64,000 nucleotides of DNA from a virus. Its lineage: Duplodnaviria > Caudoviricetes. Below the pieces are notes generated by a model that searched no databases, had not been told where the DNA came from, and worked only from the letters and a program-made list of their open reading frames with translations. The position numbers and the translations under genes are program-made. The DNA lies in the IMG/VR virus record IMGVR_UViG_3300046167_000798; one strand, 5' to 3'. Below, piece after piece: positions 14,427-33,200 of this stretch (positions are counted from its first letter, which is position 1; every line of letters starts with the position of its first letter).

Positions 14427-16011
14427 TTATAGGTTTAAATCTTTAACGTAGATTTTACCATAGAATTCAGGTCTAACCATTTTCTTAGCGTATCTTGTCA
14501 TAACTCCTCTTCTTGGAGTGAAGTTAGTCGGGTCATACACTAGAGGTGTCATGATTAATGGTACATACGGTGCATAAACAGCTCCAGTTTCAAGGAAATT
14601 ACTTCCTTTAAATCCTAACAAGATTTCGTTTGAAGTCATGTAAGGGTTTTTGTAAACTGTATATCTGTTTGCAATAGAACCAACAGTAGTTACACCAGCT
14701 GCGAAAGATGAAGCATCTTTATCAGCAGATACACTAAATCCTGGGATAGATTCTAAAATAGTACATACATCAGGAGAAGCAACTACGAAGTTAGCTCCAC
14801 CTCTTAAAGTCAATTGGTGAATCTTGTTCGATACTTTGTTAAGTTTCGCACCAAGAGTCTGGAACCAAGAGTTCTTAGTATAAGCAGCAGCGTTTCCACC
14901 AGCTATCCATGAAGAACCATCGTACTCTTCACCTAAAGTTACTGACCAGTATTCAGTAGTTAAAGCATTAGCTTTTAACATATCAAGGATTTCAAGGTCA
15001 ATCTCTAGTGAGATGTACTCTGATAACATTGAAGTTAATTCAGCTTCAGCATCGATACTGTGGTAAGCATTTAAATCTTGAGCCAATTCAGGAGTCCATA
15101 CAGCCTTAAGTTTTCTTGTCTTAGCAACGATTGCTTCAGACTTCAACTCTAGGTCTACTTCTGGAATACCGATATCACTTGCAGGTTCTTGTGGAGAACT
15201 ATCTTCGAAGTCTCCTCTGTTTGCAGCGATTGGTTGTTGTGAATACTTTTACTGAATCTAAAGTTGTTGGGTTATTAGCACCATCAGCTTTTACGAAAAA
15301 GTAAAGGTTAGATGAATCAGCGTATGAGTGTGCAGAATACTGAGCAGCAATAACTGTATCAGCAACTACGAATGAACGTACACCATCAACATCAGGTCTA
15401 GTAAGTGTTGATTTAGCAACTCCTACTTTTGCAATTTGTCCAGCAGCGATAGAAGCTGAAAGACTTGAATCAAATCCAACATCAGACCATGATGCAGATG
15501 CGAATGATGCTACTGCAGCATTTGCTTCTGTTACGTCATTTACTGAATATCCGAATCTACCATCTCCGTAAAGACCGTTTACAGCAGAATCAGTTGAACC
15601 TAGGTCATTTCCTGTACCACCAAATAGTGATTTTCCACTAAATGCTGGGTTACCTGCTTGTGCAGTACCATACTTAAAGTCTAAGTAAAAAATTAGACCA
15701 GAAGGTAAGTTCATTGGTTGAACACTAACGAATTCTTTCGATGCGATTTCACCGAAGATTCTTCTTACTAGAGGAAGGGCTACACCACTCCACTCTTCGT
15801 TACCACCACCTGTACCGGTTGCAGTAGCTTCATCAAGCAATTGTTTTGCTTGGTTTTCTAACAATACAGATACCTGTGATTGTTCTCTCTCTCCTAAACC
15901 TTCAAGAAGTCCAGTTTGTTCCCATTTTCCTTTAAGTTCTCTTGTCTCAGCAAGCATTACTTGTTGTGGGTTCTTTCCTTCCATCAATTTAGATAAATCA
16001 AAATTTGCCAT
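14427..16011 (-). CDS. gp23: Major capsid protein, T4 gp23-like (~527 aa, one frameshift)
   Basis: LLENQ, LVRR, VQPMxxPSGLIFY, AKTRKLKAxWTxELAQDL and YAPY.PL motifs. Removing one base from the T4 run at 15247-15250 fuses the two track ORFs (DSVKYSQQPIAANRGDFED...EVDLELKSEA). Confidence 0.95.
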
Positions 16012-16041: not shown

Positions 16042-17226
16042 TTAGTTAATATTAGCAAGTTTCTTGAATCTATCAGCCATCGTATTAGTTGATTCAGCTA
16101 TTACTTCTTTCGAAGGAGCAGTTGATGCAACTGGTTTAGATGCGAATGATTCAGTAATTTTCTTACTAACTTTTTGTTTTTTTGAAGTTCCATTAATCTT
16201 AAACGATTCAGCTAAAGTGCTAAATACAAGTTTAACTTCTCTTACATTACCTGTTCTGTCTAATGTCTCAACAACTTTCATTTTTTGGTCATTGTTTAAG
16301 TCATATGAACGGAATAATTTGTTTGTATAAAGTAATTTTGCATTAAGCAAGTTTACTTCATTGATTGTAGTTTTAAGTTCCTTGATTGTACTCATTGCTT
16401 CTTTTAATTCAGCTTGAGCTTCTTCAAGTTCATTAGTTTCTTCTACAACTTCTTCAGAAACTTCTTCATCTGATTCTTCTTCTTCTCCGTATCCCATTTC
16501 TTTTAGGATTTCGTCTAAGTCGATTTCTTCATCATCAGATTCTTCTGATACTTCTTCTTCTTCAGAGTGGTCTTCATCACCTTCTTCAGAAATTTCTTCT
16601 TCTTCAGATTCTTCACCTTCATTGTGGTGTTCATCTTCGTGAGATTCGATTTCATCAGATGCGATATCAGCAACTTCTTCCTCTTCTTCATCATCAAGTT
16701 CTTCTTCAAGTTCTTTAATGATAGCTTCAAGGTCAAGTTCATCTTCTTCTTCTTCTTCTGCTACTTCTTCTTTAGATTCTTCAGAGTGAGTTTCATCAAC
16801 TTCCTCATCAGATTCTTCTTCTTCAGCAACAACTTCAGATTCTTCAGATACTTCTTCTTCAGATACTTTTTCTTCTTCAGCTTCTTCAGCAACAACTTCA
16901 GTTTCTTCAGATACTTCTTCTGTTTCTTCAGATACAGTTTCAGTTGATTCTTCAACTTCTTCTTTATCTTCTTCTTCAGTTACAGTTTCTTCGGATACTT
17001 CTTCTGTAGCTTCTTCAACTGTTTCAGTTTCTTCTACTACTTCGTTTTCTTCAATTTCTTCTGAATCTTCACCTTCTTCAATTTCTTGTTGAAGTTTCTG
17101 AGATAGAATAGATTGTAAACGAGGTGTAAAAGCTTCCTCAAGAGCTATCTTAGCATTTGCAATTGCAGTTTCTCTAACGGCTTTTGCATCAGCGATAGCT
17201 TCTTTTAACAAATTTGAGTTTGCCAT
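16042..17226 (-). CDS. gp22: Prohead core scaffold protein, gp22-like, extremely Glu-rich
   Basis: Acidic low-complexity middle, coiled-coil C-half, between protease and capsid genes; ends with RFKKLANIN. Confidence 0.8.
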   Translation of the reverse strand: MANSNLLKEAIADAKAVRETAIANAKIALEEAFTPRLQSILSQKLQQEIEEGEDSEEIEENEVVEETETVEEATEEVSEETVTEEEDKEEVEESTETVSEETEEVSEETEVVAEEAEEEKVSEEEVSEESEVVAEEEESDEEVDETHSEESKEEVAEEEEEDELDLEAIIKELEEELDDEEEEEVADIASDEIESHEDEHHNEGEESEEEEISEEGDEDHSEEEEVSEESDDEEIDLDEILKEMGYGEEEESDEEVSEEVVEETNELEEAQAELKEAMSTIKELKTTINEVNLLNAKLLYTNKLFRSYDLNNDQKMKVVETLDRTGNVREVKLVFSTLAESFKINGTSKKQKVSKKITESFASKPVASTAPSKEVIAESTNTMADRFKKLANIN

Positions 17227-17405: not shown

Positions 17406-17711
17406 TTATTTTCTTGTATTTTTATTTTTATCTTCTTTTTTTTGATTCTTTGGTTTTTTCTTCTTTTTAGTGTAAAACCTTATTGAAGTATCACCATCAT
17501 CTATCTTACCAAGTATGGTTTCCTTCTGTTGTTCTCTAATAGCTTGTTGTTTTTGTTTTCTACGAACTGTTGTGGGTTTTGTGTAGTATCGTCTTTCTCT
17601 CAGTTCTAAAAGATGTCCTGAATCAATTGTTCTTCTTTTTAATTTTTTTAATGCTCTGTTAATATCTCCTTTGATAACTTTAACAGAAACGATTGCATTT
17701 TTTTTACTCAT
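17406..17711 (-). CDS. rpsU: Ribosomal protein bS21 homolog with basic C-terminal extension (101 aa)
   Basis: VxV..GDINRALKKLKR...G.L.ELRERRYYTKPT..RR...QAIR is the bS21 signature; ~40 extra residues ending in a Lys-rich tail. Confidence 0.88.
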   Translation of the reverse strand: MSKKNAIVSVKVIKGDINRALKKLKRRTIDSGHLLELRERRYYTKPTTVRRKQKQQAIREQQKETILGKIDDGDTSIRFYTKKKKKPKNQKKEDKNKNTRK

Positions 17712-17764: not shown

Positions 17765-18109
17765 TTAAGAACCTTTACCTGTTCCTGATTTTCTTCCTTT
17801 GGTATGTGTAGAAACATTGATAGGTTTCTTACCCTGTCCTGCAGATGATTTACCACCTCTATTAGATTTATTTTGTGCTGCTCTTTTTCTACGAGTTGCA
17901 GATTCTTTTTCTTTTTTACTCATAGTTTTGGCTTTAGCGGCAGGAACACATTTAGCATATCCTTTTTTCTTACCACTTGTACCACATGGAGGATGTTTAC
18001 CACTTTTATCTTTTTTACCGATGTTAACCCACTTGGATTTAAACCAGTTTCTCAAATCTTCATTTGTGGTTTCTTCAAATATCTCGTCTATGATATCTTG
18101 TAATCTCAT
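17765..18109 (-). CDS. Basic conserved phage protein, putative internal head protein
   Basis: Acidic N-leader MRLQDIIDEIFEETTNE, then EDLRNWF..KWVNIG...CG...YAKCVP basic domain. Confidence 0.5.
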   Translation of the reverse strand: MRLQDIIDEIFEETTNEDLRNWFKSKWVNIGKKDKSGKHPPCGTSGKKKGYAKCVPAAKAKTMSKKEKESATRRKRAAQNKSNRGGKSSAGQGKKPINVSTHTKGRKSGTGKGS

Positions 18110-19527
18110 TATTTACCTAATTGGAATAATTTTTCTTCTGCAGCTGCATTAGTTCTGTAATCGTAATGTTTTGGATTTACTCCAAAATCTTTTAGGGATT
18201 TTTCTAACCAAATTCTATACTTTCTTTTACCATACTTTTTTTCCATGGTATCAAGTACATCGTAAAATATCTTTTCAAATTTAACTTTTTTTACTAAATC
18301 TTTGATTTGTTTTTTATCTTCTACCATTGGATTATATCCTTGTGGTACACCATCATCCTTACCTTCAGCGAATTTCATTAATCCTCTTACTCTTTTTATT
18401 AATGTACCTGCAGGAATTCCATAGGTATCACTCATTACATCTTGAGTAAACTTGTTTGATAGGAAGTTAGATAATTCTTTTTTAGTTGCAATACCACTCT
18501 TAAAATCATCTCTAGCAATTCTATCTAATTCTTTAGCATCTATCTTACCTTTGAAGTATGCAGTAAGTGCATCTGCTTTGTAGTTGTATTTACCTTCGTT
18601 TACTGATTCATTTACATCATACATCTTACTGTTTCTACCAACAGATATAAGAGTTAAACCTTTATGTTTCTTACTTAACTTAGCAAATTCTTTTTGTGCT
18701 TTGTTGATATCTCCATCACCTGGTCTTTTACCACCATCTTGGTAATAAACTTTATCGTAATCTTGTTTCCTTTTATCAAACTTATCTACTATTACTAATA
18801 TTTCGTTTACTGATTCTCTTGTTAGTTTATATCCTTGTTTTGCAAGTGTTCCAACAAAATCACTTAAATCTTTTTTGTTCTTGAAGATTTTTATATCAAA
18901 GAAATCACTACCATCTTTGTGTTTCTTTTTTCCATCGTGATAAGATATTGTGTATTTTGCTTTACCAATACCATCTTGTCTTTTGAATCTTTTCTTACCT
19001 TCGTTCTTCTTACCCTTTTCCTCATATCCATTTGCGAATGCTGCTTTTCTTTGAGCATCTGATGAGAATCCTTCGTTCTTAGAAATTAATTCATCTACAT
19101 CTTTATGAACATCTTTGTAGTTGTTAAATTTTTGTTTACGAATAGCACTATAAATTGCTAATGAGTATTTTTGTGAGTTGTTGTGAATTTTACTTTTAAT
19201 AAAGTTACCAGATTTTTCAGCTGATTTAGAATCTTTCATTTCAACATCATTTACTGCAGTTGAAAATATTTTAAAAGCTTCAAAATGATTCTTCTTGTTA
19301 TAATCCATTACCATATCTTCGATAAAAGATAATGAAGATTTCATATTCTCTTTGTTTTGTTTGAAAACTTTGGTTGCCATAGGGTCACCTTTTTTCAAGA
19401 ATCGTACAAACTCTTCTTGTTTTTTCTTGACCTGACTCTTTTCATCAAAGTAATCTTTCTTTCTAAAAAGATTGAATACTTTTTCAAATTCTTTATTAGG
19501 GGATTTGAATCTTTCGTTGATTAACAT
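18109..19527 (-). CDS. Modular putative internal head protein (~472 aa)
   Basis: Likely start MLINE at 19527 (GGAGG ~9 nt upstream); modules separated by KNEG, RESVNE, NESVNE, FAEG. Confidence 0.55.
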   Translation of the reverse strand: MLINERFKSPNKEFEKVFNLFRKKDYFDEKSQVKKKQEEFVRFLKKGDPMATKVFKQNKENMKSSLSFIEDMVMDYNKKNHFEAFKIFSTAVNDVEMKDSKSAEKSGNFIKSKIHNNSQKYSLAIYSAIRKQKFNNYKDVHKDVDELISKNEGFSSDAQRKAAFANGYEEKGKKNEGKKRFKRQDGIGKAKYTISYHDGKKKHKDGSDFFDIKIFKNKKDLSDFVGTLAKQGYKLTRESVNEILVIVDKFDKRKQDYDKVYYQDGGKRPGDGDINKAQKEFAKLSKKHKGLTLISVGRNSKMYDVNESVNEGKYNYKADALTAYFKGKIDAKELDRIARDDFKSGIATKKELSNFLSNKFTQDVMSDTYGIPAGTLIKRVRGLMKFAEGKDDGVPQGYNPMVEDKKQIKDLVKKVKFEKIFYDVLDTMEKKYGKRKYRIWLEKSLKDFGVNPKHYDYRTNAAAEEKLFQLGK

Positions 19528-20478
19528 TTTTTCCATCCTCCACCAGCTGCTTTATACTTTTTCGGCTGCCCAACCATTAGCGTATGCTGATGGGTAAACA
19601 TCAAATTTTTGTTTTGCTTGAGATTTATAAGAACTCCACTTAGATGGGTTAGTAGGACAATTTTTCTCCATTAGAGTTTCAACCTTTTGACCGAACTCAT
19701 ATAATGCAGTTTCTTGTTCGTTTAAATCTTTTACTTCTTTTATTGTAGTAGTGATAGAACCATCATCGTTTCTCATTGATACTGCTACAGGTTCTTCGTT
19801 TAAAGATTCGTTACATCCTCCTTCGGTTGTTCCATTACATCCACATCCACAATCTTCTTTGGATTCTAAAATACTATCCAATTTTTTACTAACATGAATT
19901 TCTATTCCTTTAGGTTTACTTGATATAATATATTCTTTAGATGTTTCGAACATACTATACCCATTTACTTTAAATTTAGATTTCCTTATAAAAGGACCAA
20001 TTTGTTTTAATAATGAATCGGCAAAAATTTCAGAAGGAGCATCTTCATTTATTGATAATTCTTTAGATTCGTTCATTCCTAAACGTTCTTTCATTTGTTC
20101 TTCTGATATCTCACCAATCTTATAGTATCTTGAAAGGATGTGTCCCATATCTTCATATAATCCACCCATTCTTTGGTCAAGTGCCTTAGCTTCAGAAGCA
20201 ACTTTATCGAATTGTTTACCCAACTTATCCAATTCACTCATGTTTCTTTTAATCGTGTGTTTATCAAACCAATCATCACCTTCGTGAATTGCTAATGTTC
20301 TAGCTGCTTCTGTAATACCACCAAGTGTTTCTGCCACTTGAGTAATATCAGATTTTCTATCCATTGATTCTTGATATTTGTTGTAAGTAGAAACGATTTC
20401 TAAGAAGTGTTTTTTAACTTCTAAAGAAAGAGGTCTCTTTTCTTCTGATTCGTTCATTAGTTGGGTTAATTTAATCAT
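19521..20478 (-). CDS. Modular putative internal head protein ending in a SAYANGWAAxKYKAAGGGW (DUF5872-like) module; one frameshift
   Basis: Starts MIKLTQLMNESEE with AAGGAG; removing one base at the T5 run 19558-19562 restores ...WAAEKYKAAGGGWKKC-stop. Confidence 0.55.
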
Positions 20479-20488
20479 TGTACTCTCC

Positions 20489-21652
20489 TTAAAATAATTT
20501 TTTTAATTTTTTATCACCATAAACATCGGCGAAATACCATTTCTTATCTTTCATATTGTATAAATATATGTATTCTGCTCCACCACTTCTATCTGCAGTA
20601 TCTACATATTTACTAAAATCTTTCATATCACCTTTAGTTGGTTTCCCATTTTTGTAATATTCAATTTCTTTATCATCAAAGATTCCTCTTGCTCCACCCA
20701 TCTTGATTAGTTTAAGAACATCTTTATCACTTTTCATGTGATGTTTTAAACCTGGTTTCATATTTGATGGATATCCATCGTAGTGAACGTATGCAGAAAC
20801 AATCTTACCATTTCTACCAATTACACCAACTTGAGAACGAGTTCCTTCATTGATTATTGATTCTGGTAATAAATCTCTTAGATTTGTAGAGGTATTCTCT
20901 AAACTCATTTTCTTATCAAATAAATCTTTTAAATCTGCCCTTACATCAGCACTTCTAACAAAATCTGAACCAGAATCTTCAATATCATCTACAAACATTT
21001 TTGCAGTTTCTAAATCTCTTCCTTTAAGATATGGGAATATATCTGATTCTGCATAATCTCTCATTTCATCGCCATCTAAATCACCAATATTATTTTGAAC
21101 ATCATCTATCTGTGCATCAGAGTATTCATCTCTTACAGGTTCATCTTTCTTAGGTTCTTCTCCTTTAGGTTCTTCTTTTGGAGAATCTAAAGTCATTTTC
21201 TTATCAAATAAATCTTTTAAATCTTTTCTTAAATCAGCACTTCTATCAAAATCATCCCCTGCCGCATCAATATCATCTACATACATTTTTGCAAGTTCCA
21301 AATCTCTTCCTTTAAGATATGGGAATATATCTGATTCTGCATAATCTTGTATTTCATCACCAGGCATATCATCAATATTATTTTGAACATCTTCTATCTG
21401 TGCATCGGTTTGGTCATCCCTTACAGGTTCATCTTTCTTAGGTTCATCTTTCTTAGGTTTATCAAAGATGTTTACTTTAGGAGTATCTTTTTTATCATCA
21501 CCATCTTCTGAATCTTTTATTTTAGAATGAGTTCCAGCCTTTACAGCAGCATCTCTTGCATCTTTTGTTTTGAATACAGCAGTTTCTCCACTCTTTTTAG
21601 ATGTAGCAGTAAACGTTTCTTCTTCTTTTAATAAATCAGTTAATTTAATCAT
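20489..21652 (-). CDS. Modular putative internal head protein with 96-aa duplication and C-terminal GTRS...HYDGYP domain
   Basis: Starts MIKLTDLLKEEE; AAGGAG upstream; IINE-GTRSQVG...YVHYDGYP module. Confidence 0.55.
   Translation of the reverse strand: MIKLTDLLKEEETFTATSKKSGETAVFKTKDARDAAVKAGTHSKIKDSEDGDDKKDTPKVNIFDKPKKDEPKKDEPVRDDQTDAQIEDVQNNIDDMPGDEIQDYAESDIFPYLKGRDLELAKMYVDDIDAAGDDFDRSADLRKDLKDLFDKKMTLDSPKEEPKGEEPKKDEPVRDEYSDAQIDDVQNNIGDLDGDEMRDYAESDIFPYLKGRDLETAKMFVDDIEDSGSDFVRSADVRADLKDLFDKKMSLENTSTNLRDLLPESIINEGTRSQVGVIGRNGKIVSAYVHYDGYPSNMKPGLKHHMKSDKDVLKLIKMGGARGIFDDKEIEYYKNGKPTKGDMKDFSKYVDTADRSGGAEYIYLYNMKDKKWYFADVYGDKKLKKLF
20906..21470 (-). repeat. 288-nt (96 aa) tandem duplication
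   Basis: cattttcttatcaaataaatc at 20906 and 21194; YAESDIFPYLKGRDLE...DLKDLFDKKM twice. Confidence 0.92.
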
Positions 21653-21837
21653 AATTTCTTTGTCTCCTTTTTGAGTGTATATAAATCAAGTTTACCATCT
21701 TCTGTTAACTTAACATCATAATTTGTTTTTCTTATATCATTGTGACCGCCTTTAAATGGAACACTTGCAACGTTTCTTGTTACTGTTCCTAATTTAATTT
21801 TATTATCACCTAAGTATTTTTTTATATCAAATGCCAT
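21649..21837 (-). CDS. Small hypothetical protein (62 aa)
   Basis: Co-oriented, fills the gap between protease and next gene with a 4-nt overlap. Confidence 0.6.
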   Translation of the reverse strand: MAFDIKKYLGDNKIKLGTVTRNVASVPFKGGHNDIRKTNYDVKLTEDGKLDLYTLKKETKKL

Positions 21838-21840
21838 AAT

Positions 21841-22434
21841 TTAGTTTAATTCTGTTATAATTTCTCTCATCAAATCTTGTGATTTACACCACTCGTTACA
21901 AACTTCACCTTGTTTAATAAGTTGTTTGTTAACAGATTCATTCATCGGAGTCATAAATGCTCCATGTGTTGATGGATTAGAAACAAAATCCCAACCAATC
22001 AATTCAAAATCTTCACCTACTTGTACTTTACCACCAGATAGAGGTTCTACTGAACCCATACCTCTTGATGATATACCTAAAAGGATTCCTGCTTTAAGTA
22101 GTTCTTTTAAGATGTTACCAGATGGGGTCGGTAAAATCTCAACTGTTCCTACTAAATCATCATTATCCCAATGTATCTCTCTTACGTTATGAGATACGTT
22201 CTTTAGATTGATTACAGAAGAATCTGGATGGTCTAATTCACCAAGTGCTCTTCTTTCTTTAATAAGTGTTTCGTATTTTTTTGCTTCTCTCATCAAAATT
22301 TCTTTAGGATATATCCTTCCATTTTGATTTTCAGCACCTGCTCTTTGTAAAATACCCTTAACGATAGTTCTTCCACTCTCGTCCTCGTTTACTCTACCTT
22401 CGAATAGGTTTGTTTCTATTAATAAATTTGCCAT
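21841..22434 (-). CDS. gp21: Prohead protease, T4 gp21-like
   Basis: NQNGRIYP, ALGELDHP, GISSRGMGS, DFVSNPST motifs; likely start MANLLIE at 22434 (TAATG overlap, GGGGAG). Confidence 0.93.
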   Translation of the reverse strand: MANLLIETNLFEGRVNEDESGRTIVKGILQRAGAENQNGRIYPKEILMREAKKYETLIKERRALGELDHPDSSVINLKNVSHNVREIHWDNDDLVGTVEILPTPSGNILKELLKAGILLGISSRGMGSVEPLSGGKVQVGEDFELIGWDFVSNPSTHGAFMTPMNESVNKQLIKQGEVCNEWCKSQDLMREIITELN

Positions 22435-22622
22435 TATGCTCCCCAACTTTTACGTTTTTTAAACAAATCAAAAAAGATTGCCGATACCTCTTGTCTGATG
22501 ATTTTTCTAATTTCATCTCTATCAGACTCATTGAGTTCCTCAGTAACTAAAAAATGGTTTACACCAAATTTAGCATTTGAGATTTCCTCATTGATGATAT
22601 CGAACAATTCACTTTTCTTCAT
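22434..22622 (-). CDS. Small head-module protein (62 aa)
   Basis: MKKSELFDIINEEI leader; coupled to the protease start. Confidence 0.55.
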   Translation of the reverse strand: MKKSELFDIINEEISNAKFGVNHFLVTEELNESDRDEIRKIIRQEVSAIFFDLFKKRKSWGA

Positions 22623-22623
22623 C

Positions 22624-23058
22624 TTATTTTATCTTACCACTTCTTTCGAGTTCTTTTGCTGCACCGATTACATAACCCAATGCAGTTTTAAGGTCTCTAT
22701 TCATATATTTAGCAATCTTTTTGACTGCCATCATTACAATTCTTTTTTCTTCAGTAGAGTATCCTTCGTTTACCGACTCATCTTTTTTTTTTCCGTCTTT
22801 TTTCTCTATTGCCTTTTGAAGTGCCGGTGGTAATTTTTTCTGAGCATCTGTTAATTCAGAAACTTGTTCTTTTTTTGCTCCTCTACCTTTCCAAGTTTTT
22901 TCAATCTTGTTAAAGAATGCCTTCTTTTCTTCATCAGACATAGAAGGAATAGATTTACCTGCTTTTTCTAAGGCTCTTTTGAAAAATTCTTGATATTCAG
23001 ATTCTTCAATCATAGCTTCTCTAACTATGTTTTTTAAATGTTCTCTTGTTATTTTCAT
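22624..23058 (-). CDS. Putative internal head protein (144 aa)
   Basis: MKITREHLKNIVREAMIEE leader; CAGGAG SD; VSEL and DESVNEG linkers. Confidence 0.5.
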   Translation of the reverse strand: MKITREHLKNIVREAMIEESEYQEFFKRALEKAGKSIPSMSDEEKKAFFNKIEKTWKGRGAKKEQVSELTDAQKKLPPALQKAIEKKDGKKKDESVNEGYSTEEKRIVMMAVKKIAKYMNRDLKTALGYVIGAAKELERSGKIK

Positions 23059-24101
23059 TTTTCTATCTCCTGTATAGTTCGAGCGATATTTATCAATCTC
23101 TCCTTTATCTTATAAATATGTTTATTTGTTCTTTTCCAATACTGATTGGAATCTAACTCATTCATTGTTTTAATTTTATTATACCAATTAAAAAACTTTT
23201 GAGTTTCTGCTAACTGATATTTTAATTCCTTTAAACCCATTGCCATCTTTTTATGAGGATGCATTGTTTCATCGTTTTTTAATTCTAACCAACGATTAAC
23301 TGGTCTCTTTACTTTAGCTTCGTTTATCGATTCTTTTAATCGATTCATTTTTTTATCAGTTACGAAATATGCAGAACCACCACCTGGAATTCCTTTTTCC
23401 ATATCTTGTAATCTCTTTACTTCTTTTTCAGCATCTTTAAATGTTCTGAATTCTTTTGGTGGTAATTTTTTATCTCTTTTTAAATCATATCCACCAACTA
23501 AAGATTTACCTCTTCCTCTACCTTTATTACGAGTAATATAGTATTTTGCTTCGTTTACTGATTCGTTAACTTTCTTTACGTGCTGAACAATCTTCTTAGC
23601 AAATGCAGGAGAAGTGATTTTAGCTATCTGAATAATAGTTTCTCTTCCATTAGGTCTGATACTCTTTACACTACCTCCACCTTTCATATCAGGAAACTTA
23701 CCATCCATTGAGTACCCATAATCTTTTATTGCAATAAGGTTACTACCTTTATCAAACATAAATTTGTAAGAACTTATTCTTGAACTATAAGAAATTCGTA
23801 TAGTTACTTCAAATTCACCTTCTTTATTTTTTTTATCAGAACCGATAACCATTCCGAATGATTCACCAGTTTTGTTGTTTCTACCTTTGATAGAAGCTTC
23901 ATCCATTTTACCAACTATTTTCATACCAAATTGAGTTGAAATCTTTTTCTTACGTTTTTTATCTTTAGCACCACCATCAGAAAATGCACCAGGTACATTA
24001 TACCCAGCTACATTGCCTGTTGCAGTTGCCTCATCCAATTCTTTTTCAACTTCTTGGATAAGTTCTTCTAAAAATTTATTAAGATTTTGTTCTATTGACA
24101 T
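23055..24101 (-). CDS. Modular putative internal head protein (348 aa)
   Basis: LDEATATG shared with the capsid protein; linkers MDEA, NESVNEA, KESINEA; AAGGAG SD. Confidence 0.55.
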   Translation of the reverse strand: MSIEQNLNKFLEELIQEVEKELDEATATGNVAGYNVPGAFSDGGAKDKKRKKKISTQFGMKIVGKMDEASIKGRNNKTGESFGMVIGSDKKNKEGEFEVTIRISYSSRISSYKFMFDKGSNLIAIKDYGYSMDGKFPDMKGGGSVKSIRPNGRETIIQIAKITSPAFAKKIVQHVKKVNESVNEAKYYITRNKGRGRGKSLVGGYDLKRDKKLPPKEFRTFKDAEKEVKRLQDMEKGIPGGGSAYFVTDKKMNRLKESINEAKVKRPVNRWLELKNDETMHPHKKMAMGLKELKYQLAETQKFFNWYNKIKTMNELDSNQYWKRTNKHIYKIKERLINIARTIQEIEK

Positions 24102-24951
24102 TTTTTATCTCCTTAACCAATTCATAAGACATCATTAAAGCCGAAACTTGGTCATCGGTAACTTTTTTACCAATTTTCTGTTTTTTCAAAACATTAATAG
24201 TTTCTTTCAACTTTATTTTTGTAATCTTATCTTTCATACTCTTATACATTGAATGTAATTCAGTAATAGTTTTGATTAATTCTGATTCAAAATATTCGTT
24301 GAACTTGGATGTGTTAGTAACATTATTAATATACTCTCTTAACAATCCTTTTTGTGATTTATCTAAAGTAGTATATTTTTTATTAAAAGTTTCAACAAGA
24401 ATCTTGTATGTCAATAACCTGAGGTCTTTCTCTTGTTTTCTATATTCTTCTACTAATTTATCTTGTTTAAGAACTTTAGAATCTTGGGAAATAGATGAAA
24501 TGTGCTCTACAATAGTAATTTTCGAATCGAATATATCCTTGACATCAAGAATATCATTCTTTTTACCTTCAAAAAGTTTATGAATTGAAGCTAAAATTTT
24601 ATAGTTTGTTACCGGGGAAGATAAAAAATTATTAATTTCAAAATTTTCTTTGATTGATTTTACAAGATTATATTTTTCTCGTTGAAGTTTTTTATAATTA
24701 ATTCTAGTATGTGCTTCTAATATAGCATCAATAAATTTTTCTGCTTTAGATTCACTATTATACTTTTCATTTATTAAAAGGTTAAATAATCTAAGTTCCT
24801 TAGACATTTCAGTACCTTTACCGTAGAATTCTCTGATTATTTCTTTTGACTTTTCTTCACTACCATTTAGTATTTCAACAGTAATCTGCCTTGTTAAAAG
24901 TTCAAAAAGGAAACCAGTATTCTTAAATTTTGAATGTTTTATTTTTTTCAT
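24079..24951 (-). CDS. Conserved helical head-module protein next to portal (290 aa)
   Basis: Long ORF KHSKFKNTGFLFELL...; own TATTTATA and AGGA; function not recognised. Confidence 0.6.
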   Translation of the reverse strand: MKKIKHSKFKNTGFLFELLTRQITVEILNGSEEKSKEIIREFYGKGTEMSKELRLFNLLINEKYNSESKAEKFIDAILEAHTRINYKKLQREKYNLVKSIKENFEINNFLSSPVTNYKILASIHKLFEGKKNDILDVKDIFDSKITIVEHISSISQDSKVLKQDKLVEEYRKQEKDLRLLTYKILVETFNKKYTTLDKSQKGLLREYINNVTNTSKFNEYFESELIKTITELHSMYKSMKDKITKIKLKETINVLKKQKIGKKVTDDQVSALMMSYELVKEIKNVNRTKS

Positions 24952-24991
24952 CTTATTTTTTTCCTATTATGATATAGTAAAATTTCCCTAC

Positions 24992-24999
24992 TATAAATA
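24992..24999 (-). promoter_or_regulatory. Putative late promoter TATTTATA
   Basis: Intergenic, 40 nt upstream of ATG 24951. Confidence 0.55.
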
Positions 25000-25027
25000 T
25001 AAATTTATAAAGTTAACAGAAATTTCT

Positions 25028-26752
25028 CTACTCTTCAAGTATATTATCTTCATCTAACATACCTTTAATCTCATTTAAATATTTACGTTTTGATGCTATA
25101 CCTGATATCATTTTTATTGCTTTTTCTTCAGAAGTTCTTGAACGTTTTTTGTTTTTTTCCTTCTTTCCCAAAGGGTCTCTACCTAATGGATGTTTATCTT
25201 TCCCATAAGTACCACCTTCACGAGGCCTTCCACCCTTATTTTTTATTTCTTGTTTCAATGCTTCTATTGATTCTTCAATATCATCAGGTTCTTCATCTTC
25301 CATTGCAGGGTCATTACCCTCATCTTCAATAGAACGGAATCTAAATCTATCTTTTAAATCATCTAACATCATTACTCTTTGTTCATCAGATTCTCCTTCA
25401 GATAATTTAAATATATTTTCATATACCCAATCTTTAGATAACATATTTAATCCTTGAATATCTTGAGCCAATCTAATTTTTTCACTCCACAAGTTTACTT
25501 TCTCTTGTTCATAAATTGTAGATGGATTTACTAATTGTAATTCAAAGTTAGTCATTTCTGAATCTGTTATCCCTTGTGCATATAAATGAACAATGGCAAT
25601 TTTAGATAATTCTGAAATTACTGTTCTTTGGATTCTTTCAATTGTTCTTGCAAATCTTACATCTTCAGCAGCAAGTGTTGCTTTACCATTTACATTTTCT
25701 TCATATCCTAAATAAGCTCTTGGAATTTTTAATGCTGCAAATAATTTATTTTTTAAGTAATCAATATCTTCAATAGTTGCATACTCTAATCCTGAAAGAT
25801 TATCGATTTGTGTACCACTATCACCACCACGAACAGGAAGATAGAAATCTTCTGTTAGGTTTTGCATATTATACTTTAAGTTGTAATCACCAGTATTTCT
25901 ATCGATGAAAGGAACTTTCTTCATCTTGTTGATGATTCTCTGCATATAGTTATCCACTTCTGTTGGTGGGATGTTACCAATATCAATTTTGAAAACTCTT
26001 TTTTCAGGTGCTCTCATGATTCTATGGATTAACATAGCATCTTCCATTAGAGATAATTGTTTCCACAATCTTCGTCCATTCTCAATCATAGATTTACCAT
26101 ATGGTAACCAGTTAGTATCTGCTAACAACCTAAAGTGAGCGATTTCAAAGTTTTCGTATTCTTCTTTTCCATTCGGGTCTTCAGTAATTTTAAACTTTAC
26201 TGAATTTGGATTTGATGGGTCTGTTCTTTCTAATCTTTCTGTATTATAAACTGAATGAGGAGTAACATTTACGATACCTTTTCCTTCTGCAACTTCTAAA
26301 CCTAAAAAGAAATCTCCATACTTACACATATTTCTAGTCCATGGCCATAAGTTGAATTCTATATTAAGAACATCATAAAATAAGTTTACTAATATATCTT
26401 GAACTCGTTCATTATCAGAATGAATCATAAGAGTATCACCAAATTCGTTCTTTAGTGTTGATTCATCTGCATATATATCAAGAGCCGATGCAAGTATTGG
26501 GTCGTTATCCATCGCATCGTAATCTCTAAAAACTTCTCTACGAACTTGTTGGTATGCCATTGATTGAGCACCACCTGCTTGTTCAAAGAAACTTTTTTGT
26601 AGTTTCGTATATCTATCTCTTAGAGAAGATAAATTTGTTTGTTGTCTTTCATCGGTATCAACAACTTTTCTCTTACCATCTTTGTCAACAGTAACAACTG
26701 CTTGAGCTCTGAAGAGTTTCGTTAATCTACCAAAAAATGAAGTATCTGCCAT
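25028..26752 (-). CDS. gp20: Portal vertex protein, T4 gp20-like
   Basis: QLSLMEDAMLIHRIMRAPEKRVFKIDIGN, EDFYLPVRGG...L.G, IEDIDY...LF.AL.IP motifs. Confidence 0.95.
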   Translation of the reverse strand: MADTSFFGRLTKLFRAQAVVTVDKDGKRKVVDTDERQQTNLSSLRDRYTKLQKSFFEQAGGAQSMAYQQVRREVFRDYDAMDNDPILASALDIYADESTLKNEFGDTLMIHSDNERVQDILVNLFYDVLNIEFNLWPWTRNMCKYGDFFLGLEVAEGKGIVNVTPHSVYNTERLERTDPSNPNSVKFKITEDPNGKEEYENFEIAHFRLLADTNWLPYGKSMIENGRRLWKQLSLMEDAMLIHRIMRAPEKRVFKIDIGNIPPTEVDNYMQRIINKMKKVPFIDRNTGDYNLKYNMQNLTEDFYLPVRGGDSGTQIDNLSGLEYATIEDIDYLKNKLFAALKIPRAYLGYEENVNGKATLAAEDVRFARTIERIQRTVISELSKIAIVHLYAQGITDSEMTNFELQLVNPSTIYEQEKVNLWSEKIRLAQDIQGLNMLSKDWVYENIFKLSEGESDEQRVMMLDDLKDRFRFRSIEDEGNDPAMEDEEPDDIEESIEALKQEIKNKGGRPREGGTYGKDKHPLGRDPLGKKEKNKKRSRTSEEKAIKMISGIASKRKYLNEIKGMLDEDNILEE

Positions 26753-26793
26753 TTTGTTCCTAATTTAAATTATAACCTTTATTTGTTTTTGTT

Positions 26794-27183
26794 TTACCAT
26801 TTTCTACAAGACCAATACCTTGCTTTGTGTCTTGGTCCTGGTGAATCACAATTATGTCTAGCTCTAAATGCTTTTCTTGCATCTGGATTATTCTTTCGAA
26901 TAGACATTGTTTTTTCTCCTGATTTCTTTGCTGAACTTCCTCCATGTCCAAAGTTAACTTTTACAACGTTACCTTGTGGGTTTTTGACATATACCTTAAA
27001 TTTTTTAACATCACCTTGCATTGGTTTTCCAAGTTTAACTGTTCTACCTTGATACTCAGCTTCATTCATATCAGATTTGTATTCTTTCATGAACTCACAG
27101 AATTCTTTTATATCGTGATAATTTTCCACAGTATATTCTTCTGTGTATATTTCTTCGTTAAGTAAATTTTTTAATGATATCAT
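26794..27183 (-). CDS. Conserved phage protein with RARHNC...ARYWSC module, putative internal head protein
   Basis: MISLKNLLNEE leader, MNE-AEYQG junction; AAGGAG SD. Confidence 0.55.
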   Translation of the reverse strand: MISLKNLLNEEIYTEEYTVENYHDIKEFCEFMKEYKSDMNEAEYQGRTVKLGKPMQGDVKKFKVYVKNPQGNVVKVNFGHGGSSAKKSGEKTMSIRKNNPDARKAFRARHNCDSPGPRHKARYWSCRKW

Positions 27184-27214: not shown

Positions 27215-28807
27215 TTATTTAATTAACCAAGTTAGGTCTTCATTACTATCTCCAACTCTCATTTTCCAAGGGTCATCTTCCATTGAAGAGTTACCTCCAA
27301 ATCCCATTCCACTAATATCTAAAGAGTGTGCTCCAATACCACCTAATGCTTGTTTTGTTAAATCAATTCCTTCTTGTCTTAATCTTAATGCAGTATCTCT
27401 AACCCATAATCCGATTGATAATGACATTGTTAAATCATCATTATAACCTCTCATAGCTTCAGCTCTGTTTCCACTCCATATAAATGTAAATAATTCATCT
27501 ATTGTTCTTTGTGAACGAATCGTTACTGATTTTTCTCTAATATATTGTTCCAACTTTGATATAATCAAAGGTCGTGTTTTGGAAGTTGTACTAAATCCTG
27601 CCGTTAATCCTCTATCTTGTGCTCTATATTTGTTTGTTAATTGATTTTCTACATCTACATACTTTAAATCCTTACTCATGTAGAAAAGATTCCCATATCC
27701 TCTATCAATTACTTGTTGTATTACTGCCCAACCAATATTTGCGTTCTCAATAACAAGTAATGCATTATTATATTCAGTTGAAAGTGATACAAGGAAGTTT
27801 CCAAAATCTTTTGTATCTAATTTACCTTTATATTCGGCAACTTGAGATGATTCTTCTATATCAATAACATGACATGCAGAATAATCCGAGGAATCTCCAC
27901 GAGCAACATCCGCTACAACCATATAAGCTTTATTATAGTTTGGATATTCCCATTTCCAAAGGTTTCCATCGAATCCTGTTTTCTCCATTGGTTCTTGTAC
28001 ATAAGATTCTTTATAAAACAAAAGGAGTTGTGGGTCTATCACAGTATCACCAGAAGAAACAAAATCACAATCACATTCTTGTGCCGCTCCTTTTGGTCCT
28101 AATAGTACCTCTTGTTCATCTCTCCAATTTTGGTCTCTTTCAGGATGAACACTCCAATGTAATCTAATTGAGTTAAATGTATTTGTTTGTTCTTCAGAAC
28201 CAACCCAAGTTTTGTGAAAGAAATTTCCGACACCATTTGGTGTTGAAAGGATAATCGCATTACCACCAGTCGATAGTGTTGATTGTGCTGATACCCAAAT
28301 ATCTTCAATCTTATCAATAAATGCCGCCTCATCAAATACTAATAGGGATAGTGCTTCAGAACGACCAGCATCTCCAGCGGCTGATGTTGCTTTTATCTGA
28401 GAACCATTCGAGTATCTCAGAGATAACTTATTATCCTCTACTGTTGTTTGTTTTAACCACGATGGTAAGTACTGATTCATTACACGAACCTTCGTTACAA
28501 GGTTCTTAGCAACCTCTTGTTTAGTTGCAATTACTAATACATTAAAATCTTGATTGAATAACATTTTCCAAAGTGAAAATCCCGCAGTTAAGGTAGAGAT
28601 ACCTGTTTGTCGAGATTTAAGGATAATATTGTATCTGTGTTCTGCAAATTGGTCTAATGTTCTTTCTTGAAATTGATATAAATGAAAAGGTATCTTACCA
28701 CGCACAGGATGTTGAATCATACAATATTTTTTCATAAAGTAGATTGGGTCTCCAGCACATTTCTGATACTCAAGTTTTATAATATCTTTTAAAGATTGTT
28801 TAGCCAT
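27215..28807 (-). CDS. terL: Terminase large subunit, T4 gp17-like
   Basis: Walker A KSRQTGIST, Walker B LLVFDEAAF, STPNG, nuclease ADVARG..DYS and DDLTMS. Confidence 0.96.
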   Translation of the reverse strand: MAKQSLKDIIKLEYQKCAGDPIYFMKKYCMIQHPVRGKIPFHLYQFQERTLDQFAEHRYNIILKSRQTGISTLTAGFSLWKMLFNQDFNVLVIATKQEVAKNLVTKVRVMNQYLPSWLKQTTVEDNKLSLRYSNGSQIKATSAAGDAGRSEALSLLVFDEAAFIDKIEDIWVSAQSTLSTGGNAIILSTPNGVGNFFHKTWVGSEEQTNTFNSIRLHWSVHPERDQNWRDEQEVLLGPKGAAQECDCDFVSSGDTVIDPQLLLFYKESYVQEPMEKTGFDGNLWKWEYPNYNKAYMVVADVARGDSSDYSACHVIDIEESSQVAEYKGKLDTKDFGNFLVSLSTEYNNALLVIENANIGWAVIQQVIDRGYGNLFYMSKDLKYVDVENQLTNKYRAQDRGLTAGFSTTSKTRPLIISKLEQYIREKSVTIRSQRTIDELFTFIWSGNRAEAMRGYNDDLTMSLSIGLWVRDTALRLRQEGIDLTKQALGGIGAHSLDISGMGFGGNSSMEDDPWKMRVGDSNEDLTWLIK

Positions 28808-30203: not shown

Positions 30204-33200
30204 TTAGAAGAAAATACCAAGTATTTGATTTACGGATGCAAATGTACCAGTAAGTTTAAAAGTATTTCCTTTATACAAGAACACGATACCTTCATTTGGT
30301 ACAATTTTTTTAGAACCACCAATAGAATTTAATCTACCAAGTTCCAATTTAAGTTTTTCTATCTTTTTTGGGTCACCCGATTTCTTAACATCTTTGATTG
30401 TTTTATCAATTCGTTTTTTCATATCACGAACTGCTGAATCAGGATTAACTGTAAGTGCTGATGAAGTAAATTCTAATACTTCTGCTCCAAGACCAAGGAA
30501 AATCTGTTCGAACTTCATTAAGTTCTTCTTACCAATCTTCTTTTGGTCATCTTTATCTGTTTTCTTAGCCCATTCTAATGTTTTTTCATCAGTAATGTTC
30601 TTTTTATCTAATCTAAATCCCTTATCCATAAACGCCCATCTCTTAACTAACCCCATTTTGGTTTTGTTATCGAGTGTTGATGGTGAATTTTTATCAACCC
30701 ATTGTTCCCACCATGCTTGGTGATAGTTCGCAACACCATCAGTATCCTTTAAACCAAATTCTTTTTGTAGTTTAGATATCTGTGATGAGTATTTACTTCT
30801 TTTCTTTGATAAATCGGTAGATTTGGGTAGTTTTACAACAGGTGGGCCTTTGATTGTATAACTATCTTGTACATCTTTGTTAACTTGTTTAATCATACCA
30901 GCCAATATTCTAGCCGCATCACCATTCTCTCCAATTGCAACACCTTCTTCATTAAATTCCATAGTACCATGGAACACAAGTAACGCCTGACCATAAGGAA
31001 TAACGTTTACTGATGTTGGATATATCACTTCAAGGTTCATAAAACACGCACCTTGTTTAAAAATCTTATCTCTTTGTTTATCGTTAAGTGATTTGATTGC
31101 ATTTGAGAGGTCTTTCATTGCATAATTGTAAGCATCACTCAATCCACCCCTACCTTGGAACTTATCTGATACCCCTTGTATATCCAAAGCATTCTCACCT
31201 CTGTTTTTTAGGTGTCCTTTGTTTCTGGCCGCTACCAATCTACCATCTCTCCATGAAATAGCTAGTGCTTGACCATCTGTTTTCTCTCTTGTGAACTCTA
31301 ATGTACCTTCGAGTGCTCTATTTACGATATCTTTAAGTTGTCCAAAGGTTAAATTGATATCAGTATCAAATGGGTGAGACATATGTCCATACGCACCACC
31401 TTCTTGGAGTAATTTAGATTCGTTTATGTTTTCTTTGATTAGTTGTTGTGGTGTTTTAGTGTTCGGTAAAAACATTTCAACTAACTTATTATCAATATCA
31501 CTTATTAATTGTTCTATTTCATTCATAAACTTTTCCTTTTCTTTATTTTTAATCCACAATCCTATTTCAGGTCCTTTGATATCAGATGGAGCATCCTTTC
31601 CACCAATAGATAAGTTAAAGTTTACAAACTTTTTCATATCTTTTCCAACCAACTTACCAAATTTAAGGATTTGGTCATCTGATAAAGATGTTTTTTGTTG
31701 TAGTTTCTTGAATACTACAATTTCTTCTGGTCTAAAGTGTTGTAGTGATACTAAAAATACAATATTATTTTTTTCGTCATTAGAATAAGTTAATTTGTTT
31801 AATTGTTTTCCTAATACCGAAGGTGAATTCTTTTTTAATAGTGATGCAATGAACAAAATATAATCATTATCCTTGATGTAAGGTTTAGATATTTTAAGAT
31901 TTGGGAATATTAGTGAAGTGAATCCAATCTTATCATTCAACTCCATATACTTTTTAGTATCTTTAGCCTGATTTGATTGATTTTATAACCTCATCTCTAA
32001 CTCTTTCAAATGAAACTCCTTTAAGTGATGGGTCTTTTTGTAACGCATCAAGTAATTCTTTATCTAAGTTACCACCTAACCTTGCTTGGAATCTTAAAGC
32101 TCTTAGTTTTCTTAATGGGTCTTCATCAAATCTTTCTGATGCCTTACCAACTGTTCTAATGTTTTTCTTTTTAAGGTCTGCAATACCTCCAACTAAATCA
32201 ACTATCTCTTTTCTATCAATATCATAGAACAAAGCATTGATAGTTAAATCTCTTCTTCGTACATCACCCTCTATATCTGTATAATCAACCGATGAAGGTC
32301 TTCTACCTTTACCAATATCTTTTCTAAACGTTGCAATTTCATGTCCACCAACCATTACAACTCCGAATGATTTACCAACCTCAACAGTTTTCATTCCTAA
32401 ATCTTTTGCAATCTTTAACACCTCATCTGGTTTTGCATCTGTTGCTAAATCAAAATCCTTTGGTGATTTACCAAGTATAGCATCTCTTACTGCTCCACCT
32501 ACTACATAAAGTTTCTTACCATTCTTTTTAAATCCTTTTTGGATTTTAATGATATCAGATGGTACTCTTAATTTAAAGTTTTTACTTTCATCTAATCCAC
32601 TTCTATCGTGTTTAGAGAATTTACCTAATTTATCAAATGCTCTAAATGATTTTAGTTTATTTACTTTTTTAGGTGTCATTACAGATAGTTGTTTATATCT
32701 CATGTGGTTTTTAACAATGTAAAATACATTTGCTGGATTACCACCAACTGATTCTATAAACTTTTTATACTTCTTTACTAAAGATGCTGATACTTTCTCA
32801 TGTCCAAAGTGTGTAATGTGTCCTTTCTTTGGATGAATACCTGCAGTTTCATCTTTTCCTATATCATGGAACATTGCTGCTATTGCAATATCAATGTCAT
32901 CTTCTTTGATTGAACGATTTACAACTACGATTGTGTGTTTAAGAACATTTCCTTCAGGATGTTTATCTACTCTTTGACCAAAGTTTTTTAAATTGTAAAC
33001 TCTCTTTTGTAAATCAGAAGGCATCTTTTTAAATAAGGATTTGAAATCGGTGATTCCTAATTCTTTTAAACTTTCTTCAATTGGTTCGTATCCTCGTTTC
33101 TTAGTATCCTTTTCTTTTTCTTGATGTCCACCTAGTTTACCATCATCATCAAAATCTATTGTATCTGGTTCAGCTATTGAACCTCTTTTTGCATATGATG

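Follow-up and report, generated by a model that had tools for sequence, protein, structure and literature searches.

Genes between the terminase and the scaffold

The 64,000-nucleotide stretch of the viral record IMGVR_UViG_3300046167_000798 (Duplodnaviria; Caudoviricetes), referred to here in its entirety as the window, carries between its large terminase and scaffold genes a group of candidate head cargo genes whose products combine a short N-terminal leader with strings of small modules linked by a recurrent E-S-[VIL]-N-E sequence, termed here the joint. The minus strand is the coding strand for all genes of the window. Read from 28807 downwards, the order on this strand is large terminase, 129-amino-acid (aa) protein, portal, conserved 290-aa protein, and proteins of 348, 144 and 62 aa, followed by a Peptidase_S77 protease, proteins of 62, 387, 308, 475 and 114 aa, a ribosomal protein S21 homologue, a 394-aa scaffold and the major capsid protein. 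The protease gene occupies the middle of the cargo cluster.

The 475-aa polyprotein (18109-19536) begins with the short leader MEKMLINE and a helical N domain, followed by a decayed joint, KKNE (about 19000-19011), where relatives have NESVNE, and then by a 68-aa module, an ESVNE joint (18802-18816), a 69-aa module, a further ESVNE joint (18595-18609) and a C domain; the joint strings of this protein are RESVNE and NESVNE. The 348-aa carrier (23055-24101; leader string MSIEQNLNKFLEE) is made up of an N part (residues 1-68), two modules (69-184 and 185-261) and a C domain (262-348), with ESVNE at 23550-23564 and ESINE at 23319-23333, in the strings NESVNE and KESINE. Glu24 of the N part and Glu261, directly before the conserved C-terminal domain, are invariant across 32 members of the 348-aa family. 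The 144-aa carrier (22624-23058) has a conserved N part beginning with MKITREHLKNIVRE, an ESVNE joint at 22765-22779 (DESVNE) and a basic C module of 46 aa, which stands alone behind a MIKL leader in two related loci (L038 and L033) and closes other carriers in three more (L072, L049 and L063). The 308-aa protein (19552-20478) starts with MIKLTQLMNE|S, the bar marking the predicted cut, and comprises three modules with the joints SINE (20044-20055, in LSINE) and ESLNE (19795-19809, in NESLNE).

In the 387-aa protein (20489-21652), the leader MIKLTDLLKE|E precedes an acidic part with an isoelectric point (pI) of 4.3, an ESIINE joint (20846-20863) and a basic module of 118 aa. This module, residues 270-387, matches phrog_1987 as well as stand-alone proteins of cyanophages and Streptococcus phages, these matches starting at residue 262-270. 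The acidic part is encoded by a 288-bp tandem repeat (20898-21449; 1.9 copies, 86% match), and one seawater contig lacks 319 bases at this repeat, which suggests copy-number variation.

The smaller proteins follow the same plan or supply parts for it. The 129-aa protein, encoded between terminase and portal (26794-27183), has the leader MISLKNLLNE|E (27154-27183) ahead of a basic domain of pI 9.6, and phrog_7595 matches it at residues 37-129 only; the leader of this family is present in 34 loci. The 62-aa protein at 22434-22622 (leader string MKKSELFDIINEE, leader-like N-terminus MKKSELFDIINE|E) belongs to a conserved family found in 21 loci. The other 62-aa protein (21649-21837) is basic and has no leader, and its homologue is fused before module 1 of the 308-aa protein in other clades. 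The 114-aa protein (17765-18109; pI 10.7, DUF5872-like) has the leader string MRLQDIIDEIFEE and the leader-like N-terminus MRLQDIIDEIFE|E, and its domain forms the C-terminal end (residues 520-625, 91% identical) of a 625-aa polyprotein in locus L032.

A leader of T4 type

A hydrophobic-hydrophobic-x-Glu sequence is found within the first 15 residues in eight of the nine proteins of the zone, against 5 of 51 others (Fisher, 4e-6), and three of these five are the scaffold, the protease and an enzyme polyprotein encoded upstream. The canonical form of the leader, carried by the 387-, 308- and 129-aa proteins, has 10 residues and the pattern M-I-[KRS]-L-x-x-h-h-x-E; T4 internal proteins IPII and IPIII, which start with MKTYQEFIAE|A in the T4 record, have the same length and pattern. 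The five other N-termini of the window (MKITREHLKNIVRE, MSIEQNLNKFLEE, MKKSELFDIINEE, MRLQDIIDEIFEE and MEKMLINE) are conserved within their own families. The initial annotation had described about ten leader genes; its shared pattern stands, but the genes number eight, only three of them with a canonical MI[KS]L start, and the MEKMLINE leader of the 475-aa protein had been overlooked. All of the leaders and linkers that it quoted were recovered on the minus strand, as was the LDEATATG string that it reported in both the capsid protein (at Glu61) and the 23055-24101 protein (at Glu24).

The comparative set consisted of 59 IMG/VR loci covering the portal-to-scaffold zone. In related loci, the strict leader pattern occurs on 57 proteins from at least 11 unrelated families, and outside the zone all of its 38 occurrences are in the 129-aa family or the enzyme polyprotein. 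The silent positions of the leader vary freely, and it is therefore selected as a peptide; conservation of the leader at the DNA level was considered and rejected for this reason. The same domains can be found behind a leader or behind a joint: the GTRSQVG module, preceded by ESIINE| in the window's 387-aa protein, stands directly behind the leader in locus L009, and the LLxEGGAYGHM domain follows ENINE| in a 580-aa protein of the window and a MIRL leader in locus L026. As far as sequences can tell, leader and joint are thus interchangeable, in that one domain can follow either.

A specific joint concentrated in the portal-to-scaffold zone

The nine non-core proteins encoded from terminase to scaffold total 2,029 aa and contain six ES[ILV]NE sequences (mean 0.009 in shuffled sequences, with a maximum of 1 in 20,000 shuffles); none occurs in the remaining ~19,000 aa of the window. 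Across the 59 loci, the 48,351 aa of the portal-to-scaffold zone hold 80 ES[ILV]NE, a 55-fold enrichment, and 47 ESVNE[AG], against 6 and 0, respectively, in the 210,185 aa of all other proteins, and all six of the former lie in homologues of the enzyme polyprotein encoded upstream of the terminase. In 100 distinct S-[ILVM]-N-E sites, P5 is Glu in 77 and P3 is Val in 67, Leu in 15, Ile in 14 and Met in 4; P1' is Ala in 36 and Gly in 22, and P2' is Lys or Arg. When Asn is not imposed at P2, this position is Asn in 79, Thr in 7, Ser in 5, Lys in 3 and Asp in 3. The composition of these sites, a hydrophobic residue, any residue and Glu followed by a small residue, fits the T4-type cleavage rule, which has been described together with targeting propeptides of 10-20 residues (PMC5694885). 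Short likenesses to the joint are also present in two T4 proteins, scaffold gp22, which holds IFESVNISPE, and gp68, which holds LASINENMPLNEF (T4 record, L083); these may be due to chance.

The prohead protease and its predicted sites

The protease gene (21841-22446) encodes a prohead serine protease of the T4 gp21 type (Peptidase_S77; Pfam 3.4e-26, phrog_207 3.9e-49, BLASTP to T4 gp21 8e-21), in which His69 and Ser122 align with the catalytic His85 and Ser140 of T4, so that the enzyme looks catalytically intact. The capsid protein, a homologue of T4 gp23 (BLASTP, E 1e-6), has a predicted maturation cut at LLDE|ATATG (Glu61 codon at 15829-15831) that aligns with the T4 gp23 cut LTE65|AEIGG and is kept in locus L014; LDE|ATATG is also the string found at Glu24 in the N part of the 348-aa carrier. 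A link between joint and protease is consistent with these features, if indirectly: a protease of the S77 family with its catalytic His and Ser, a predicted LLDE|A cut in the capsid protein, and joints that present [ILVM]-x-E followed by Ala or Gly. Near its own C-terminus, at residue 164, the protease holds PMNESVNK, a near-copy of the joint with Lys replacing the final Glu, and relatives have PVSMNES or NPISLNEGKQ at this position; MNE|S could be a site for C-terminal autoprocessing.

We consider it probable, with real room for doubt, that the cargo genes encode capsid-targeted polyproteins which are cut by the S77 prohead protease and packaged, the linker doubling as a recombination joint. 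Alternatively, these chains could be late cytoplasmic polyproteins that are never packaged, and that either stay unprocessed or are cut by some protease other than the prohead enzyme; a few modules are enzyme-like according to Pfam (Zeta_toxin, CTP_transf_like). The leader, however, follows the pattern of the T4 capsid-targeting sequence, the genes flank the prohead protease, Pfam and PHROG scans of the cluster revealed no second protease, and T4-type prohead proteases work inside proheads (PMC5694885), all of which makes a cytoplasmic fate very improbable.

Modules as structural and hereditary units

The AlphaFold model of the 475-aa protein has a mean predicted local distance difference test (pLDDT) score of 69.5 and falls below 50 at residues 1-6 (the leader), 159-179 (the decayed KKNE joint), 241-245 and 302-315 (the two ESVNE joints) and 394-408, a place of recombination in relatives. 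The stretches between these dips comprise an N domain made of helices, two small modules of alpha/beta type and a further pair of helical units; in the model, the joints are located in low-confidence interdomain stretches. Several predicted folding units in one frame, a repeated consensus site and pLDDT dips at the joints are what a processed polyprotein would be expected to present.

The joints also delimit what is inherited. A search of 5.8 billion proteins yielded 1,131 homologues of the 475-aa protein, and the best 120 of these display 50 architectures built from ~45 module families, with common parts 50-100% identical; in some variants, one module of the window protein has been removed or replaced exactly at a joint. 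Two modules of the 475-aa protein are found, in reversed order, in a 348-type carrier of locus L009. In the 348-aa family, an N part of ~65 aa and a C domain of ~90 aa are constant and enclose 0-5 unrelated inserts, each ending in ESVNE, and an [IL]NE|A junction, its Glu invariant, persists even in the forms without inserts. Homologous matches cover joint-bounded segments to at least 90% in 84.6% of cases, against ~48% if these proteins are instead divided at random positions, and 25% of internal homology ends fall within 6 residues of a joint, against 8.7% expected (maximum 10.8% in 1,000 randomisations). Single-linkage clustering of modules merged families, because joints lacking the Ser had been left uncut, and was replaced by stricter coverage rules; for the 475-aa protein, high-scoring segment pairs of at least 85% identity gave only 11 internal ends, too few for use. 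The initial annotation had proposed that modules are swapped at linker-delimited joints under a shared leader, and had suggested comparing module content and module boundaries among related phages. These comparisons bear it out: breakpoints cluster at the linkers, segments are inherited whole, and the same modules recur in different carriers and orders, behind a leader or a linker.

Measured from one joint to the next, 271 distinct segments span a median of 75 aa (5-95%: 54-184); 87% of them exceed pI 8.5, and their median Lys fraction is 0.16, against 0.13-0.15 in the T4 internal proteins. These properties bear on the possibility that the cluster encodes prohead core or scaffold components, in the manner of T4 gp22, gp67 and gp68, cut only for clearance from the head. 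The location between portal and capsid genes is that of T4 genes 67, 68 and 22, all relatives share, as a core, the conserved N parts of the 348-, 144- and 308-aa families, the 144-aa N part has a weak match to a scaffold PHROG (E 0.0077), and the 387-aa protein has an acidic repeat region of pI 4.3. The variable modules, in contrast, have the size of folded domains and are overwhelmingly basic and as rich in Lys as the T4 internal proteins that are retained; some of them are stand-alone proteins of unrelated phages, and 50 architectures in 120 homologues amount to a strain-level turnover that would be unexpected in a structural scaffold. The composition of a T4-type scaffold is matched by the 394-aa scaffold and by the acidic part of the 387-aa protein, but not by the basic modules. 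As an account of the whole cluster, clearance of scaffold is hence improbable; it probably does hold for the conserved and acidic parts, alongside the packaging of the basic modules.

The joint as a fixed DNA word

Unlike the leader, the joint is fixed beyond its peptide. The sequence GAATCAGTAAACGAA accounts for 42 of the 62 distinct ESVNE sites. The joint Val is encoded by GTA in 66 of 67 sites (background 0.45 in general and 0.61 before Asn), the Ser by TCA in 72% (0.32 in general, 0.40 before Val) and the Asn by AAC in 65% (0.34 in general, 0.40 before Glu); VNE tripeptides not preceded by Ser show no such codon fixation. Codon-pair bias was examined as a cause, and explains a part (GTA 61%, TCA 40%, AAC 40%) but not the 68% identity of the whole 15-mer. 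Used alone, a 16-mer of the joint finds at least 120 IMG/VR stretches. Among the matches listed, there are 170 matches of the 16-mer in 122 open reading frames (ORFs), with up to seven joints per protein; with the 16-mer in frame as ESVNE, 115 of the 122 ORFs have 80 aa or more and 4 have fewer than 40; and the head genes of this clade are present in 80 of the 114 new loci. Four of the loci found in this way (L171, L100, L140 and L116) contain tiny ORFs ending in ...SLTESVNEGK and a stop, which may be what is left of disrupted cargo genes, or joints lying at gene ends.

Assembly breakpoints gather at the same places. In four seawater/virome runs, contig joint ends were compared with the eight clear joints: 11 of 30 are no more than 24 nt away (6% expected), a count that rises to 14 of 30 (7.5% expected) once the decayed joint and the point where the 348-aa N part stops are included; one loose contig end at the decayed joint is the reverse complement of GAATCAGTA. 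Together with the gathering of homology breakpoints at the joint, with silent positions fixed beyond codon and codon-pair bias, and with the precedent of short DNA cassettes that shuffle modules in T4-type genomes (PMC2839356), these data would suit a joint whose main roles are those of flexible linker and recombination cassette, on chains that remain uncut and bear only an incidental likeness to protease sites. Several features oppose this reading. Variant joints with other codons or residues (SLNE, SINE, SMNE, ESVKE, SVVTE, KIVE) retain a hydrophobic-x-Glu sequence and the small residue after it, family members devoid of inserts still have [IL]NE|A and its invariant Glu, the joint can be exchanged for a leader whose silent sites are not fixed, and the motif occurs only in genes surrounding the protease and in a single enzyme polyprotein that has a leader. 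An uncut linker is therefore unlikely. That the E-S-V-N-E joint has two purposes, its peptide serving as a protease cut site and its fixed 15-base DNA word as a recombination joint, is put forward here tentatively, as a possibility for which the odds are somewhat short of even.

Neighbouring genes and related phages

Around the cargo genes lies a T4-type head module. The large terminase (27215-28807) and the portal (25028-26752; homologue of T4 gp20, BLASTP E 6e-24) are followed by the 290-aa protein (24079-24951), which starts with MKKIKHSKFKNTG, has neither leader nor joint nor family match, and is conserved as far as the Flavobacterium immuto phages and Microcystis phage Mel-JY01. The S21 homologue (17406-17711; Pfam 1.9e-12) is also devoid of a leader; it is located inside the head cluster, between the cargo genes and the scaffold, and Mel-JY01 has a counterpart at the same place. 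The acidic 394-aa scaffold (16042-17226) has the N-terminus MANSNLLKE and contains 37 [ILV]xE sites. The major capsid gene (14427-16011) is split over two frames, with the change of frame near 15257-15280: compared with its 534-aa orthologue in locus L014, residues 1-248 match one frame and 255-532 another, and the split probably reflects an indel introduced by sequencing or assembly, not a biological feature.

Upstream of the terminase, a 1035-aa NMNAT-like/HD/CCA-type protein (within 30204-35070, minus strand) starts with MNELSKFLVE|S. This protein and the 580-aa protein contain the joint-like sites LLNES, SLNEN, GLNEE and ENINES, and homologues in relatives reach 1,980 aa and have ESVNE joints.

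The closest cultured phages, Mel-JY01 and the Flavobacterium immuto phages, share ~50% portal identity with the window and have few or no ESVNE joints, which makes them unusable as direct models. A megablast search of 15 kb against 50,697 phage records gave no match, and tblastn with the 475-aa protein likewise found nothing. Related stretches in IMG/VR number more than 598. Contigs with the 475-aa protein reach about 275 kb, and the stretch is present nearly word for word in seawater/virome runs from at least 16 studies.

A model of leader-addressed, joint-linked precursors

In the model proposed here, the genes around the prohead protease would encode precursors of internal head proteins. 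The amphipathic leader (M-I-[KRS]-L-x-x-h-h-x-E) would address each precursor to the core of the assembling prohead, as the T4 capsid-targeting sequence does, and the gp21-type S77 protease, acting inside the prohead, would cut after the Glu of the leader and after each E-S-[VIL]-N-E joint. These cuts would free small, folded, Lys-rich modules (median 75 aa, pI ~9.5) that may remain with the DNA like T4 IPI-III, while the conserved and acidic parts would serve assembly, the acidic ones as scaffold that is then expelled. Recombination between joints would add, remove, reorder and move modules, and since every joint is the same 15-base sequence, frame and cut site would be preserved in each move. 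Repeated exchange would in turn keep the joints alike and provide each strain with its own cargo set. A leader that acts as a capsid-targeting sequence and a joint that acts as a protease site would together cover the position of the genes, the leader itself, the chemistry of the joint, its placement, the equivalence of joint and leader, and the properties of the products, and targeting and cutting provide the simplest account. Delivery of the products into the host is the most speculative step of the model, and we regard it as possible but doubtful.

Several observations weigh against this interpretation, in which cleavage, packaging and injection are inferred. The generic [ILV]xE motif, whose enrichment the initial annotation had offered as a check, is barely enriched in the cargo zone (28.1 against 22.6 per 1,000 aa in the 59 loci, or 1.24-fold), so that the check comes close to failing and the argument rests on one specific motif, S-[ILVM]-N-E, which does carry the signal. 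Five of the eight leaders are family-specific and resemble the canonical leader in pattern only, and the conservation of silent positions in the joint reveals a constraint beyond peptide recognition. For the 348-aa protein the AlphaFold model is of low quality (mean pLDDT 56), although both joints are among its dips, and Foldseek of the 475-aa model against the PDB returned nothing at E <= 0.001. Pfam on 89 polyproteins came out almost empty, and the ESM Atlas provided no more than leads: one module is weakly WGR-like (TM 0.6), and another matches unnamed viral clusters. Lastly, the cargo proteins show no sequence similarity to T4 IPI-III, gp67, gp68 or gp22 (BLASTP, all E > 0.09).

If the model is correct, head-delivered proteins would be a major and fast-evolving arsenal of abundant ocean phages, not a T-even curiosity, and T4-type phages would have a second layer of modular evolution, in which domains within genes are exchanged through a coding joint, on top of the traffic of genes by way of intergenic cassettes. 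Should the dual role of the joint also hold, it would constitute a natural combinatorial cloning system, in which strains of an abundant clade of marine giant phages could reassort a pool of small injected proteins numbering from dozens to hundreds, with plausible roles in counter-defence or host takeover, and in which leader and joint would also load whole enzymes into the head, as in the upstream NMNAT/HD/CCA/ligase-like polyprotein. In practical terms, the motif allows candidate virion cargo to be picked out of metagenomes by a simple rule, the 15-16-base word can be used as a probe for these loci, and leader and joint would make a ready design by which one gene could load several proteins into a T4-type capsid. 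The question of what marine phages inject besides DNA becomes testable, and existing virome metaproteomes can be screened for the predicted N-termini.

Comparison with known systems

No published account of such joint-linked module polyproteins was found in the searchable literature, in which a full-text search for ESVNE gave nothing relevant, and a paper on pelagimyophage genomics does not mention head cargo, prohead or protease (PMC7029224). The nearest known system is that of T4, where IPI, IPII and IPIII, together with Alt, have a capsid-targeting sequence and are processed by gp21 (Mullaney and Black 1996, as reported in PMC3012670 and PMC5694885), and where a conserved targeting leader is carried by diverse, fast-changing, small basic proteins cut by gp21 (PMC3012670; PMC2839356). 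Judging by sequence, the two systems are alike in their 10-residue amphipathic leader ending in hydrophobic-x-Glu, in a homologous S77 protease and in predicted products that are small, basic and rich in Lys, and in both the repertoire is hypervariable, conservation being confined to the leader. They differ in that the cargo described here is not homologous to the T4 proteins (for IPI, IPII and IPIII, BLASTP gave all E > 0.2 and Pfam found no IP family), which makes it a functional analogue and not a family member by descent. Furthermore, many modules are encoded here in one frame, with a standard joint and up to 8 modules per leader, the joint is fixed as DNA, and the genes are located inside the head-morphogenesis cluster, whereas those of T4 are at distant loci.

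Short conserved DNA at module borders has its own precedent in promoter/stem-loop cassettes (PeSLs) and in the conserved elements of T-even IP loci, which mediate the shuffling of modules (PMC2839356; PMC4122927; Repoila et al. 1994, cited there). As in the loci analysed here, such elements promote gain, loss and exchange of small accessory units among close T4-type phages, and the T-even IP genes are themselves shuffled. PeSLs, however, are intergenic, consist of a promoter and a stem-loop, and move whole genes, whereas the joint is a 15-base in-frame coding sequence across which domains are moved within genes.

In phiKZ, 201phi2-1 and SPN3US, many head proteins are processed by a T4-related protease that recognises a short x-x-Glu motif and sometimes cuts one protein more than once (PMC5694885; PMC10052503). 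The likeness lies in the protease, in its short Glu motif and in the long propeptides that act as targeting signals in phiKZ-type phages. The cuts in those phages, in contrast, mostly remove propeptides, their motif is [SAG]-x-E, and their proteins are not mosaics of interchangeable modules; neither a standardised joint nor silent-site fixation is described in those sources. The polyproteins pp220 and pp62 of African swine fever virus are cut at Gly-Gly-X by a virus protease and yield several products of the virion core. They share with the chains described here a repeated consensus site within one frame, and differ in having a fixed domain order where that of the phage proteins is variable. 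Set against these systems, the design encoded in the window is best seen as a variation on the T4 system of internal proteins and capsid-targeting sequences, to which it adds many modules per frame linked by a standard joint, a feature that is not part of the known system.

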